DNA of 64,000 bases from sequence record OP172790; one strand, given 5' to 3'. Positions 12,620 to 35,397 of this stretch are shown in pieces. This stretch comes from Escherichia phage ECO319P1. Each line of letters begins with the position of its first letter. The stretch's first letter is position 1. The notes beneath the pieces were generated by a model. That model did not search any database and was not told the origin of the DNA. It saw only the letters and a program-made list of their open reading frames with translations. The position numbers and the translations under genes are program-made.

Positions 12620-13585
12620 TTGAAATTCGAGAAATTCCAATCTCTCGTAAATGAGTCTATGAAGAACGTTGGAGGTTTCCTTCGGGATTCCTCCTTCGGG
12701 AAACGTAAGGCCATTGTTACCGAGAAAATCCACGGTGCTAACTTCTCTGTCTACTTCGGTTGTAAAGACAATGTGGTTGGTATCAACTTCGCTTCTCGTT
12801 CTCAGATGCTGTGCCCTGAAACTAACTTCATGAATTGCCAACGCTACTTCACTGAAGAAAAGATTCAGGAATTGCTGGAACATGCTTCCACAATCATGGC
12901 TCTGGACAAATGTGAACTTCGTATCATCGGTGAAATTTACGGTGGCATGGATATCGCTGGAATCAAACCCGTTCAGCGAGAAGTCCACTACTCCGGTGAT
13001 ATTGGCTTCCGTGTGTTCCATGCACAAATTGCCAACAACGAAACTGGTGAAGTCTTTGACTACAACTGGAAGAATGTGAAAGCTCTTGCCAAAGATTTTG
13101 GCTTTGAGGTCGCACCAATTGTGGCTGAAGGTCTGACCTTTGAACAGGCTTATGCACTTGACCAGAAGGTTAAGTCTGCTCTGTCTGACAAAGACCAGAT
13201 TTGTGAAGGTTACTGTATCCGCGTTGATGCAGATGAAGAAGGTCAAGCACCTTTAATCTTCAAGAAGCGTAATACTGAGTTCCTTGAAACCAAGGGCACT
13301 GTGAAGGCTCCTCAGAATACTGTAGAGCAGACGCAACTCGGTATGGAAGCAATGGCACGTATTGGTGCATTCATCACACCACAGCGTGTTTCTAACGTCA
13401 ATAGCCACCACGGTTTCGATAGTCCAAAAGACTTCCAGAAACTGATGGAAGCTGTACTTGATGATGTGCTCAATGAGTACAAAGCCGAGTATGACGTAGA
13501 CCTTCGCAATGAGTTGGTCTGGAAAGAAATTAAGCGTTCAGTTGGAGCACAGGTAGTGCCGCTGGTACGTGAAGTTCTGCTGTAA
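12620..13585 (+). CDS. RNA ligase, Rnl2-like (T4 RNA ligase 2 family)
   Basis: Nucleotidyltransferase motif I in context AIVTEKIHGANFS resembling T4 Rnl2 EKIHGTNFS; N-terminus parallels Rnl2 only if TTG at 12620 is the start (ACGGAG RBS upstream). Confidence 0.7.
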   Translation: MKFEKFQSLVNESMKNVGGFLRDSSFGKRKAIVTEKIHGANFSVYFGCKDNVVGINFASRSQMLCPETNFMNCQRYFTEEKIQELLEHASTIMALDKCELRIIGEIYGGMDIAGIKPVQREVHYSGDIGFRVFHAQIANNETGEVFDYNWKNVKALAKDFGFEVAPIVAEGLTFEQAYALDQKVKSALSDKDQICEGYCIRVDADEEGQAPLIFKKRNTEFLETKGTVKAPQNTVEQTQLGMEAMARIGAFITPQRVSNVNSHHGFDSPKDFQKLMEAVLDDVLNEYKAEYDVDLRNELVWKEIKRSVGAQVVPLVREVLL

Positions 13586-13603
13586 TTATTGCACATTAAT
13601 ATA
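13583..13603 (+). promoter_or_regulatory. copy 1 of conserved 21-bp motif TAATTATTGCACATTA(T/A)AATA, candidate phage-specific promoter
   Basis: Near-identical motif also at 28998 and 35377, each intergenic and just upstream of a gene start. Confidence 0.5.
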
Positions 13604-13619
13604 GGTTAAGGATAATCTT

Positions 13620-14228
13620 ATGTTTTTACTTCTGAATGGCTCCAACATCACTGGTATTTCTTCAAACGTTGCTGACTTGGTTGCTCATATTAAGAACCTT
13701 CATGATTCGGAAAAGTTGAAGTTTGAAACTCCGAATGCTATTCCAGCTTATACAGTGAATAGCTACAACAACGCTACGAATTATGCAGCACAGATGATTC
13801 GTAACTTGAAGATTATGAAAGTTGTGGGTGACAACCTGTTGCCAATCAACAACAATCCATATCTCCAACTGATGAACTGGCAAGGTCATATTCTGGTTGA
13901 TGGTGTTACTGATATTACAAGTCAGTACTTCACTGTTGAGCAGACAACTTATGACGGCCCACAGAAAGTGTTTGCAACGGTTGCTAAGAAGGGCTTGAAG
14001 TCTTCAGGTATGGATGTTATTGTTGACCCTAATCAGGTCGGTCGTGGCGTTCGTACACCAGAGCAGTATGAAGAGTTGTGTGGAACCTTTGCGAAAGTTA
14101 AGGTGTCACTGAATATCAATGCAAATGGTTGGTATGGTGCTACACTGTTCATGAGTGCTGACTCTCTGACAAACTATCGAGTTGAAACTCAGCAGGTCAC
14201 TGGCTTCAAAGCAGTGTTCGCAGAGTAA
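13620..14228 (+). CDS. hypothetical protein
   Basis: AAGGA RBS, ATG, 202 aa, follows conserved motif. Confidence 0.55.
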   Translation: MFLLLNGSNITGISSNVADLVAHIKNLHDSEKLKFETPNAIPAYTVNSYNNATNYAAQMIRNLKIMKVVGDNLLPINNNPYLQLMNWQGHILVDGVTDITSQYFTVEQTTYDGPQKVFATVAKKGLKSSGMDVIVDPNQVGRGVRTPEQYEELCGTFAKVKVSLNINANGWYGATLFMSADSLTNYRVETQQVTGFKAVFAE

Positions 14229-14236
14229 TTTGCAAG

Positions 14237-14260
14237 AAGGCTTCTACGGGAGCCTTGTTT
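14237..14260 (+). terminator. rho-independent terminator candidate
   Basis: Stem AAGGCTTC / GGAGCCTT with UACG loop followed by GTTTCGAATTT. Confidence 0.55.
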
Positions 14261-14283
14261 CGAATTTGTAAAAGGAAAACAGA

Positions 14284-14640
14284 ATGTTAGTAAAAGATGA
14301 AAGAGGTAGTATCAATTTTATCGACGAAGAAGATAACTTCGTTGGTTTCAGAAGCTACCAGTGCTGCTGTGAAAACTTCGGTTGGCATATTACTGACTCG
14401 AACGACGAGCACATAAACATTGTGGAAAATGACCCAGAGTTTCTCCGTGGATTCCTCTTCAACACTGACAAAGAGCCGACTGAATCTGCTGACTCTGATT
14501 ATGGTGATGGTGGTAGCGTTAGCTTCCAACTGATAAACAGTATGACAGGTGAAACACTTTGCCTGACCCTGTATAACCACCACAACGGTTATTATAGTCA
14601 CGGATGGCAATCATCCTTTGGTGGAAGTGGCTCCCTCTAA
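14284..14640 (+). CDS. hypothetical protein
   Basis: AAAGGA RBS, ATG start. Confidence 0.5.
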   Translation: MLVKDERGSINFIDEEDNFVGFRSYQCCCENFGWHITDSNDEHINIVENDPEFLRGFLFNTDKEPTESADSDYGDGGSVSFQLINSMTGETLCLTLYNHHNGYYSHGWQSSFGGSGSL

Positions 14641-33548: not shown

Positions 33549-33864
33549 TGTAGCCGAAGGTGTTCTGAGAGAATTAGAACGTGCTGTAGCAATCGCAGAA
33601 GTTGATGGTGTTCATGAGAAAGTTGCTCTGATTACACTGTTAACTTCAGTGAAACGTGTTGTTCGTGAAATGCGGACTCACTCTACAACGTGTCCTTCCT
33701 GTGGTCAACCTAATATGGGTGCTCACTATTGTGTCGGTTCAATGCAAACTGCAAAGACTGGACTGAGGGATTTGCTCGGTAAAGAAGGTTATTATCGAGA
33801 CAGTTCTGAGATACTCAAGGACGTTTGGCCCGGTTGTGATACGAGTAAGATTGGAGCTTGGTAA
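33508..33864 (+). CDS. hypothetical protein with Cys motif
   Basis: CPSCGQP...HYC; start overlaps ligase 3' end, start uncertain. Confidence 0.4.
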   Translation: MSVNVMKRGTQLNNVAEGVLRELERAVAIAEVDGVHEKVALITLLTSVKRVVREMRTHSTTCPSCGQPNMGAHYCVGSMQTAKTGLRDLLGKEGYYRDSSEILKDVWPGCDTSKIGAW

Positions 33865-34076
33865 TGGCTCGAAAACCACGTAAACCAAAAGTTAAACCGA
33901 TTATCAATGTTTGGGACATGGATGAAGAAACGATTCAGAAGGTTATTACGCATCTGGAGAAGGATTTCCCGCTCTCAGGAATGTTAATCCGTTACAAAGC
34001 AGAGATTGGTCGTCGTAATGACGGCCTTTCCGTTGAAGATTTCTATAAAGTTAAGGAAGACGATGAAGATTTATAA
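33858..34076 (+). CDS. hypothetical protein
   Basis: GGAG RBS, ATG start. Confidence 0.4.
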   Translation: MVMARKPRKPKVKPIINVWDMDEETIQKVITHLEKDFPLSGMLIRYKAEIGRRNDGLSVEDFYKVKEDDEDL

Positions 34077-34620
34077 TGCCGGTCATATGCTTACCCGTGG
34101 TGCTCAGTTCCAACGTCAAGTTGAAAAAGATGAACTGAATAGTGTTGCTGATGATTTACAGTGGTACGACCCGAAGGAAAATAAAGAAATCAACGATAAG
34201 GCTAATCTGGATAATAACGATGGACTCGCTGAGAAGATTGTTCGCCAAGACACAAATGCTCTGTTTTGGGCTGATACTGTGGTCATTGAGCCCCTACCTG
34301 AAGCTCTTGGAACTCATGTCGAACTCGGACAGCTCAAAGGCATGCGGGATATGGCGATTGCGATTGTTAATCTTATCAATAACGCTACCTCCGTCGATGA
34401 TGCTTTTATGCAAATCGGTGCTCTCTGTGACAAACAAATAACTCGTTCTGTATACCCACACTATGAGGATATCCGCAGATTCAAAGGGGCGAATGAGTCC
34501 GAAGACCGTCGTTCTTGGGGTATCAATCAATATGTGTATGGTGTATGCCTTGACTTAACAGACGGTAAGGGTTTATACGACTGGAGCGAGGTTCTGAGGG
34601 AACTTAGCAATGAAGATTGA
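34063..34620 (+). CDS. nucleoside 2-deoxyribosyltransferase-like / dNMP N-hydrolase-like protein
   Basis: N-terminal MKIYNAGHM and ADTVVIEPLPEALGTHVELGQL resembling NDT/Rcl MKIYLAGP and DxGTxFELG (catalytic Glu); AAGGAAG RBS before ATG 34063. Confidence 0.45.
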   Translation: MKIYNAGHMLTRGAQFQRQVEKDELNSVADDLQWYDPKENKEINDKANLDNNDGLAEKIVRQDTNALFWADTVVIEPLPEALGTHVELGQLKGMRDMAIAIVNLINNATSVDDAFMQIGALCDKQITRSVYPHYEDIRRFKGANESEDRRSWGINQYVYGVCLDLTDGKGLYDWSEVLRELSNED

Positions 34621-35014
34621 TATCTACCGCAAGAGAGAGGGGGAAAACGTCGTAGGCTTTCCTATGGCGTTTGCCAGAAAGGTTTATGAGGGTTGCCCCA
34701 TTTTCCAACACCGGGATTTCTCCGAGTTTTTCTTTTCAACATCAATGACAATTCGTAATACCCTTCGTTGGGAGTACGTTGTTACAGATGATGATGGCAA
34801 TGTGACGGCCTCTATGGCTGTCTACAAAGACTTTGATATGCATGTAGGCGAATGCCTTAGTGTATTGGTAGCGTTCAGCACAGACGACCACAGCTTGTTT
34901 AAAGCGTACCGTTGGTTGATGAAGCTGGCAAAAGAAGAGATGTGCCCTTTCGTAGCTTATACACGGAAGACTGGTGATTTTACAATGGATTTAGTTTACA
35001 GGAAGGTTTCATGA
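34610..35014 (+). CDS. hypothetical protein
   Basis: GGGA RBS, ATG start. Confidence 0.5.
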   Translation: MKIDIYRKREGENVVGFPMAFARKVYEGCPIFQHRDFSEFFFSTSMTIRNTLRWEYVVTDDDGNVTASMAVYKDFDMHVGECLSVLVAFSTDDHSLFKAYRWLMKLAKEEMCPFVAYTRKTGDFTMDLVYRKVS

Positions 35015-35280
35015 GCGCATTAGATACTATGGTAGGTGGTTCACATTATCAAGCTGAAGGTGGTATTCAGCCAATTCAGTTCTATCATGCAAATCCACAG
35101 CTTGACTTTCAACAGTGTAATATGATTAAATACGCATATCGACACAAAGATAAGAACGGTTTGCAGGACTTACTGAAGGTTATTCACTATGCGCTGCTCG
35201 AAGCTGAGTTTGACTACGGTGACGACAAAGATAAGTTCGAAGCGTTTAAGGAGCAAGTACGTGGCCTCGTCAAAATCTAA
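35011..35280 (+). CDS. hypothetical protein
   Basis: GGAAGG RBS, ATG overlapping upstream stop. Confidence 0.5.
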   Translation: MSALDTMVGGSHYQAEGGIQPIQFYHANPQLDFQQCNMIKYAYRHKDKNGLQDLLKVIHYALLEAEFDYGDDKDKFEAFKEQVRGLVKI

Positions 35281-35376
35281 AAAGAAAGAAAAGAAAGAGG
35301 AGGCTCCGAAGGAGTTCTCCCCTGAAGTGATAGAAGCTGTACGAAAAGAACTCGAATCGCTTCCATTTTAATCAAA

Positions 35377-35397
35377 TAATTATTGCACATTATAATA
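35377..35397 (+). promoter_or_regulatory. copy 3 of conserved 21-bp motif TAATTATTGCACATTATAATA
   Basis: Identical to copy 2; 43 bp upstream of ATG 35440. Confidence 0.5.

Follow-up and report, generated by a model that had tools for sequence, protein, structure and literature searches.

A strand-oriented 21-bp repeat with lineage-specific versions in Grimontviridae phages, a candidate third class of promoter

Transcription in phages of the 7-11 subgroup of phiEco32-like prolate podophages is known to involve sigma-70 early promoters and promoters read by a phage-encoded sigma factor. In phage 7-11, primer extension, in vitro transcription, and KMnO4 probing showed that eight promoters are recognised by this sigma factor, gp47, through a bipartite consensus, GTAAtg-N16-aCTA, and the same consensus is predicted at eight places in the GAP52 genome (Lavysh et al., 2022, PMC8948821; Table S4). 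A MEME search of 7-11 gave no over-represented motif; “no middle promoters” were reported, and read-through or antitermination was assumed over about half of the genome (PMC8948821). TGATGT-type motifs have also been predicted in this group (Guzina and Djordjevic, PMC4331800). Since 7-11 is described as having no middle promoters and read-through is invoked in their place, the known regulons leave room for a third class. Here, a 21-bp element, TAATTATTGCACATTATAATA, is described from a stretch of 64,000 nucleotides (nt) of Escherichia phage ECO319P1 (sequence record OP172790; hereafter “the window”). The window belongs to a Crifsvirus-like phage of the family Grimontviridae within the 7-11 subgroup: its region 13000–36000 is 89.7% identical to Cronobacter phage A24 with 96% coverage, and 89.5% identical to GAP52. 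Early/middle genes for nucleotide metabolism, replication, and RNA repair, together with one extracytoplasmic function (ECF)-like sigma factor, occupy the plus strand as far as about 37.2 kb, and the minus strand from 37.3 kb carries structural genes. The element is family-wide, strand-specific, and previously unreported: no mention of it was found in the literature searched, and the two published searches for promoter motifs in 7-11 report other sequences or none.

A search of the window allowing up to three mismatches finds exactly three matches to the 21-mer, all on the plus strand. Copy 1 (TAATTATTGCACATTAATATA, 13583–13603) differs at two positions, and copy 2 (28998–29018) and copy 3 (35377–35397) are exact and also have their flanks in common (AAA...(A)GAG). 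The chance expectation is 0, as none appeared in 100 dinucleotide shuffles, and no extra copy is found in the window at up to five mismatches. An earlier note on this DNA, made from the sequence alone, had described three near-identical copies, the latter two identical over 21 bp with matching flanks, all intergenic and upstream of plus-strand start codons, and this description holds in every one of these respects: all three are intergenic, and the ATGs follow the motif ends at distances of 16, 9, and 42 nt for copies 1, 2, and 3, respectively. The first three bases of copies 1 and 2, TAA, are the stop codons of the preceding genes, i.e., the gene at 12620..13585 and an endolysin-like gene at 28608..29000. 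Copy 1 is followed by a Shine-Dalgarno sequence, GGTTAAGGA, and then by the ATG at 13620, copy 2 by AGAG and the ATG at 29028, and copy 3 by a 42-nt leader and a PnuC-like gene. A Shine-Dalgarno-like purine run lies 3′ of each motif and precedes each downstream ATG. The start ATG that the same note had placed inside the motif is an error: the 21-mer has no ATG, and what lies there is the TTG of TTGCAC, which merely opens the longest possible open reading frames (ORFs), 29004..29483 and 35383..36060. The true starts are the downstream ATGs, in agreement with the A24 annotation and with a conserved N-terminus, MARKP.

Each of the Grimontviridae genomes examined contains four to six copies of a lineage-specific version of this element. 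A24 has five and GAP52 has six; each is located either on the coding strand, with a start codon 9–45 nt further on, or within the control region that separates the early and late clusters. Five copies are probably present in the window phage as well, because close relatives carry two copies just beyond the window ends, a fourth that precedes the window start by about 180 nt (contig L036, A24, and GAP52) and a fifth beyond the right end in the early/late control region (contig L040, A24, and GAP52). All 15 copies have the same first 16 nt but different flanks, and the AT-rich 3′ end alone varies among them (TATAATA, TATTATA, TATATAA, or TAATATA). The motif is directional, because nearly all copies are oriented like the gene downstream.

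Analogous elements in the relatives were found by a de novo search for repeated 12-mers. The element is the first- or second-ranked repeat in GAP52, A24, 7-11, PKM.Lu.22.1, pSal-SNUABM-01, and BUCT695, where it shares the top two ranks with a nick-like repeat (ACTACGGTGACG/ACTACTGTGACG; see below), and it is among the top few repeats in Privateer. It reads CAGTAAATCCACATATAA in 7-11 and pSal-SNUABM-01, AGTTAATCCACATATAT in PKM.Lu.22.1, TAATTAATCCACATATATA in Aeromonas phage BUCT695, and AATTATTGCACATAATATA in Proteus phage Privateer. The window-type motif also occurs in two more Crifsvirus-like contigs, and a third type, AATAGTGCCCATTATATAAGG, in a 71-kb contig. Alignment of 36 copies from eight genomes, anchored on CACAT, divides the element into two halves: the 5′ half is uniform within a genome and different by lineage (TTATTGCACAT, TWAATCCACAT, or TAGTGCCCAT), and the 3′ half, common to all lineages, consists of CAT, 5–7 A/T, and then AAGRG. 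Conservation starts abruptly 12 nt 5′ of CACAT in all genera, and therefore there is no conserved −35 element. An exact 17-mer scan of IMG/VR gave no multi-copy relative; its 18 single matches, one copy per contig, are taken as chance matches.

The copies are often orthologous, being placed before the 13620-type gene, before the 29028-type gene, before the PnuC gene or where the cluster ends, and within the control region. For example, copy 1 has an orthologue in A24, GAP52, 7-11, pSal-SNUABM-01, and BUCT695, and PKM.Lu.22.1 has a copy at the syntenic position. Copy 2 has an orthologue in A24, GAP52, BUCT695, Privateer, and contigs L044 and L046; it is absent in 7-11, with an 11-nt gap between gp050 and gp049, and in contig L045. 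For copy 3, an orthologous “end of cluster” copy is found in all relatives.

The orientation, the placement, and the cassette features described below are best fitted by a promoter-type signal heading portable gene cassettes. To this extent the suggestion of the earlier note that the motif is an expression signal of promoter type stands as the best reading, and only its assignment to the phage sigma factor has to be given up. It is tentatively proposed, at a little less than even confidence, that the 21-mer is a third, phage-specific class of promoter, beside the sigma-70 early promoters and the GTAA-N16-ACTA phage-sigma promoters. The host RNA polymerase would use the element with the aid of a putative phage-encoded specificity factor. 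The lineage-specific 5′ half (TAATTATTG in the window phage) would be the recognition part, and the common 3′ half (CACAT, 5–7 A/T, AAGRG) would be the part for melting and initiation. The whole element is compact (about 21–26 bp) and strand-specific. Each copy heads a gene or a small cassette within the long early/middle cluster and would presumably act at a “middle” time; firing of the further copy in the control region could disturb early transcription and direct polymerase toward the origin/terminus region. A phage-encoded reader is suggested by the observation that the 5′ half varies by lineage while the host polymerase and sigma-70 are near-constant among the enterobacterial and Aeromonas hosts.

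A phage sigma factor is encoded nearby: the ECF-like sigma factor gene, orthologous to 7-11 gp47, is located at 30399–30956 on the plus strand, 1.4 kb downstream of copy 2. By phmmer searches of all ORFs of seven genomes, one sigma factor and no second one is found per genome, strongly conserved between genera (E = 1e-92 to 1e-99), and no homologue of the phiEco32 co-factor gp79 is detected. The earlier note proposed that the 21-mers are promoters read by this factor, which would make them a second, atypical promoter class of the phage sigma. Some copies in 7-11 and pSal-SNUABM-01 indeed have GTAAAT or GTTAAT followed by ACTA 17–18 nt on. However, the orthologous sigma has an experimentally defined consensus, GTAAtg-N16-aCTA (PMC8948821), which fits nine other sites in the window: GTAAK-N17-ACTA is found there nine times against 0.72 expected, always intergenic and co-oriented with the genes. 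They match the promoters proven in 7-11 and the GAP52 predictions, with one further site, and constitute the phage sigma regulon, separate from the 21-mer. On the plus strand, they are 15644..15669, the additional site, before the primase/helicase gene; 18013..18038, equivalent to GAP52 P48; 24424..24449, equivalent to P59; 29457..29482 (GTAAGA-N16-ACTA), equivalent to 7-11 P48 and GAP52 P71 (P71/72) and 460 nt past copy 2; and 36047..36072, equivalent to P86 and 650 nt past copy 3. On the minus strand, the late promoters are 43488..43513 (P92 equivalent), 48734..48759 (P98 equivalent), 56831..56856 before the major head gene (P107 equivalent), and 63247..63272 before the first late gene (P1).

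When the three window 21-mers are tested against the gp47 consensus, none has GTAA, and ACTA is not found where the spacing demands it. Because neither half of the sigma consensus stands at the right spacing, the phage-sigma assignment is not supported. The two elements are alike in that they occur in the same family and genomes as phage-specific sequences, in a handful of copies before particular genes, but the gp47 promoters are bipartite with a 16-nt spacer whereas the 21-mer is one contiguous block, and the sigma and its GTAA/ACTA consensus are constant among 7-11, GAP52, and the window whereas the 21-mer differs by lineage. A second sigma promoter class is accordingly regarded as very unlikely. 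No fragment bearing a 21-mer-type motif was used in the published 7-11 assays (PMC8948821).

Two other signals lie near the sigma gene and promoter P1. A hairpin with a UUCG-type tetraloop, GAGGCC-TTCG-GGCCTC, is found at 30352–30367 on the plus strand, followed by TTTATTT, after the gene for a 255-amino-acid (aa) protein and before the sigma gene; it corresponds to the GTTCGG hairpin reported before the sigma genes of 7-11 and GAP52 (Lavysh et al., PMC8948821). A perfect sigma-70 consensus (TTGACA, 16 nt, TATAAT; 12/12) is present at 63682–63709 on the minus strand, directed toward the late cluster, about 400 nt upstream of P1, and is conserved in contig L040.

As for the host factor, the earlier note was right that the TTGCAC and TATAAT-like parts are too close together for a standard sigma-70 promoter; moreover, the position of TTGCAC is occupied by ATCCAC or GTGCCC in related genera and is not conserved. 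Copies 2 and 3 have TATAAT as their −10-like hexamer and copy 1 has TAATAT, and the sequences 17 bp upstream of these hexamers (GTTCTG, GAACTG, and TTAATC) contain no TTGACA-like −35. Nevertheless, the copies might be plain sigma-70 promoters, in which the host holoenzyme alone would use the TATAAT-like −10 and the A/T-rich upstream sequence as weak constitutive “booster” promoters, the long conserved 5′ part reflecting merely the common descent of the copies. The perfect TATAAT in two of the three window copies and a TAnnnT before the purine run in most copies of the relatives speak for this explanation, as does the report that sigma-70 transcription stays on during 7-11 infection (PMC8948821). 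It is considered unlikely, in view of the missing −35 and of several further features. CACAT stands directly before TATAAT, with no TGn extension at −15/−14, and a sigma-70 consensus scan of 28700–29700, the region of copy 2, did not call the site. Conservation stops 12 nt 5′ of CACAT, and several copies in A24, GAP52, PKM.Lu.22.1, and BUCT695 read TATATA(A) without the final T, the one at −7. Furthermore, the 5′ half is constant within genomes and switched as a block between lineages at orthologous sites, and the predicted start would lie downstream of the Shine-Dalgarno sequence. The consensus sequences of sigma-54, sigma-32, T4 late promoters (TATAAATA), and IHF, compared by eye, do not fit across the lineages.

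The constant position of the motif on the sense strand, abutting AAGRG and 9–18 nt from most start codons, would also suit a signal acting at the RNA level within a polycistronic mRNA, either a site for a (phage) endoribonuclease or a translation/stability element 5′ of the ribosome-binding site (RBS). The phage carries RNA-repair genes (Rnl2 and RtcB), ProQ-type or RNA-chaperone genes occur in relatives, and processing has been suspected elsewhere in 7-11 (Lavysh et al., PMC8948821). Such a role is rather unlikely, as no RNA structure is predicted at the three sites (fold z-scores of +1.00, +1.03, and −1.02), the only Rfam matches in the window are tRNAs, none of them at the motif, and recognition of 16–20 nt of single-stranded RNA would be unusual for an RNase. 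The copies in the control region and at the cluster ends of 7-11, pSal-SNUABM-01, and PKM.Lu.22.1 serve no gene. In addition, no promoter is known that would lie upstream of the control-region copy on the same strand. The alternative of a processing site, also raised in the earlier note, is therefore weakened.

Promoters consisting of a −10-like hexamer and a phage-specific box in place of the −35 are known from other phages: T4 middle promoters have a MotA box and no −35, and P1 late promoters have a conserved box near −22. The P1 late promoters have no −35 and need the phage protein Lpa (PMC8198154). These −35-less, activator-dependent promoters are the closest functional analogues of the 21-mer, with an early phage protein that would redirect the host polymerase and create a middle or late class. 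An architecture of the activator type is indeed present, in that the invariant 16-nt 5′ part adjoins an AT-rich hexamer, but its spacing is unlike that of P1 and T4: the box of the 21-mer touches the AT-rich part without a spacer, and the Shine-Dalgarno sequence follows at once, in contrast to the start site usually found about 7 nt beyond the −10. No homologue of Lpa, MotA, or AsiA was found when the early proteins of A24 and the uncharacterised proteins of the window were searched with Pfam and PHROG, with partial coverage of the small early ORFs.

Several points weigh against the proposed promoter. AAGRG is directly 3′ of the AT-rich part, even in copies that have no ORF. If TATAAT is the −10, the start would fall about 7 nt downstream, in or after the Shine-Dalgarno sequence, and therefore several genes would have leaders of just 2–11 nt; a start at the motif end would leave the Shine-Dalgarno sequence in a suitable place, but such a start is characteristic of single-subunit polymerases, none of which is encoded. 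The T that sigma-70 requires at −7 is missing from several copies, which read TATATAA. Since the copies are not preceded by terminators, internal promoters are not strictly required. The putative reader is also elusive. Besides the lack of a second sigma and of a gp79 homologue in the seven genomes, Pfam and PHROG searches of the early proteins, with partial coverage of the small early ORFs, gave no reader; the only matches are a DksA/TraR-type zinc finger and an Srd-like protein, neither of which is sequence-specific. A screen for orthologues that are closer to each other between the type-A lineages (Crifsvirus and Privateer) than to type B gave no convincing DNA-binding candidate. The 151-aa protein encoded after copy 2 was considered as an autoregulated factor and rejected, since it has no recognisable fold in PDB: its AlphaFold model is helical (predicted local distance difference test score, pLDDT, 73.5), and Foldseek gives no PDB match with E <1.

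Architecturally, the closest known elements are the promoters of the T7 group. The promoters of T7, T3, SP6, and K11 are compact (about 23 bp), with variable upstream specificity, a TATA-like melting part, and a purine-rich start, and they are few per genome and used as cassette or recombination boundaries. The 36 aligned copies from eight genomes have the same contiguous architecture: within about 23 bp, an upstream part that depends on the lineage leads into a TATA-like part and then a purine-rich start, followed by a Shine-Dalgarno sequence. The window motif agrees with the K11 promoter, AATTAGGGCACACTATAGGGAGA, at 17 of 23 positions, and the presence of four to six copies, one of them near a presumed genome end, is reminiscent of T7, in which phiOL and phiOR lie near the genome end. 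The 21-mer might thus be a promoter of T7 type whose RNA polymerase is encoded by the phage but has escaped recognition. Unlike in the T7 group, however, neither the window nor the relatives examined have a detectable gene for a cognate polymerase, be it of T7 type or of two-barrel type. Among the large and unknown ORFs, neither PF00940 nor a PHROG polymerase was found by Pfam and PHROG searches, regex searches found neither the T7-type motifs A, B, and C nor the conserved DxDGD, and no RNA polymerase gene is annotated in A24, GAP52, 7-11, pSal-SNUABM-01, BUCT695, or Privateer. A 1304-aa protein was tried as the polymerase and rejected: its sequence is of low complexity with coiled coils, its homologue in Privateer is a virion protein, and neither the single sequence nor a 7-sequence profile found a relative in PDB. 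A T7-type promoter is consequently the least probable of the explanations considered here, with very little expected of it.

In phiEco32, the promoters of the middle and late classes (tAATGTAtA), which depend on the sigma factor gp36 together with gp79, resemble the 21-mer in being a single element without a −35 in related prolate podophages, with the start 6–8 nt downstream. In contrast to phiEco32, the 7-11 group has no gp79, and the sigma it encodes is only a distant relative of gp36, for which another specificity has been proven. tAATGTAtA is absent from the sense strand of the 21-mer, whose reverse strand, TAATGTGCA, matches it at 7/9, and no tAATGTAtA-type sites were found in 7-11 or GAP52 (Lavysh et al., PMC8948821). 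No repeated analogue of the 21-mer was found in phiEco32. A single TCATTATTGCACTCATAATCA, which shares a 10-mer with the window motif, occurs in its genome (NC_010324, about 77250–77275); the right terminal repeat begins about 100 nt downstream of it, and its relative position is thus that of the control-region copy in the Grimontviridae. Since the activators and the polymerase are absent and the tests for the 7-11 and phiEco32 sigma consensus failed, the 21-mer belongs to none of the compared classes.

The copy in the control region deserves separate description. It lies in the long divergent region pointing to the late cluster, opposite in strand to the early transcripts and with the late promoter P1 about 1.9 kb downstream, and in A24, contig L040, 7-11, and PKM.Lu.22.1 it faces strong leftward TTGACA-type early promoters at a distance of 30–100 bp. 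Because no promoter is known upstream on its strand, this copy must act either as DNA or as a transcript start. The compact T7-like, lineage-specific design and this facing copy could also be combined into a transcription system without any recognisable component, in which the facing copy would serve as a switch ending early transcription; its reader would be an unrecognised phage polymerase, or a new factor giving the host core enzyme a contiguous 20-bp specificity and an unusually promoter-proximal start. Such a system is thought quite improbable.

Copies are also located at the boundaries of exchanged genes. In GAP52, an additional gene for endonuclease VII (gp084) is inserted at motif copy 3 (GAP52 30216–30579, corresponding to about 35377 in the window) and is bracketed by two motif copies as direct repeats. 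The gene after copy 1 (13620..14228, plus strand) encodes a 202-aa protein that is strongly variable among close relatives, with an aa identity of 76% to A24 and 36% to GAP52 in surroundings whose DNA is about 90% identical, and the divergence among its homologues starts precisely at the 3′ end of the motif. From these two cases it follows that the motif marks cassette boundaries. The gene at 13620–14228 resembles an exchanged cassette, possibly with a function in host interaction or anti-defence. At the end of the cluster in 7-11, pSal-SNUABM-01, and PKM.Lu.22.1, no ORF follows the motif, just about 55 nt and a bidirectional terminator hairpin; alignment of the leaders downstream of the end-of-cluster copies shows patchy conservation (CTTACAC), insufficient for calling a small RNA.

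The coincidence of these junctions with the motif would also suit a DNA site without a promoter role, either a binding site for host DnaA or a phage DNA-binding protein (as roadblock, regulator, or in replication or at the termini) and/or a short stretch of homology for cassette exchange. The DnaA box has the consensus TTWTNCACA, and the corresponding part of the motif, TATTGCACA, matches it at 8/9. This nAWTNCACA match is 8/9 in Crifsvirus, Privateer, BUCT695, and PKM.Lu.22.1, and 7/9 in 7-11 and pSal-SNUABM-01, and the differences between types A and B fall on the degenerate W and N of the box. Perfect boxes (TTATCCACA) are repeated in the control region of A24, and the 7-11, pSal-SNUABM-01, and GAP52 records open at the control-region copy or within 7 nt of it. 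The mismatch, however, is at the conserved T2 in every lineage, position 2 being always A, and the type C sequence, GTGCCCAT, has no CACA core. Co-orientation with the genes, the RBS-proximal placement, and the 3′ AT-rich part with AAGRG are left unaccounted for, and GenBank record ends are no evidence of physical ends. A pure DNA site is hence fairly improbable, and the resemblances to the DnaA box and, on the reverse strand, to tAATGTAtA are leads only.

Additional signals surround the control-region copy in the relatives. The perfect DnaA boxes of A24 are AGTTATCCACAGG and CTTATCCACAT, repeated outside the window (record positions 60, 152, and 75039; L004 14900–15107), and the A24 intercluster region between the early and late genes may represent a replication origin. 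The GenBank records NC_015938 (7-11), MW296032 (pSal-SNUABM-01), and NC_019402 (GAP52) are those that open at, or at most 7 nt after, the control-region copy. In A24 and GAP52, this copy is followed by TTTCT..TCTCACTC, which is similar to the left end of phiEco32 as defined by experiment, AGCCTTTCTCTCACTC. A physical genome end or a terminal repeat may therefore adjoin the motif, with the reservation on record ends stated above; the exact 127-bp “terminal repeat” of A24 looks like an assembler overlap with k = 127.

The other two genes preceded by the motif in the window are of different kinds. Copy 2 is followed by the gene for the conserved, all-helical 151-aa protein (29028..29483, plus strand), two genes upstream of the sigma gene, and copy 3 by the gene for a PnuC-like nicotinamide mononucleotide transporter (35440..36060, plus strand; PF04973, E = 2.5e-25). 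Three tRNA genes (Phe-GAA, Pro-TGG, and Trp-CCA) lie at 62263–62696 on the minus strand, where the late cluster begins.

The nick-like repeat mentioned above is a separate element. In Pseudomonas phage tf, single-strand nicks are proven at the consensus TACT/RTGMC (PMC3517423). The window contains six TACGGTGAC and one TACGGTGCC, with ACTACGGTGACG as their consensus, against about 0.5 exact copies expected. They are positioned at 3028, 8532, 16502, 22178, 27020 (the single TACGGTGCC), and 35215 on the plus strand and at 50657 on the minus strand, all on the sense strand of their cluster. The exact tf sequence, TACTGTGAC, has 7–13 copies in 7-11, pSal-SNUABM-01, and PKM.Lu.22.1. The ACTACGGTGACG repeat is the local version of the tf nick consensus, which suggests that the DNA of these phages has site-specific nicks.

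The 21-mer is thus a conserved, oriented, and lineage-specific element that was missed by earlier promoter searches, with four to six copies in each genome of the family examined. If it is a promoter, it would supply the missing temporal class in these phages and would imply a phage-encoded specificity factor. Its natural variants (TTATTGCACAT, TWAATCCACAT, and TAGTGCCCAT) provide a ready set for specificity swaps and possibly for orthogonal expression parts. Or, if it is not a promoter, it would still be a conserved signal that marks the boundaries of gene-cassette exchange in the Grimontviridae.

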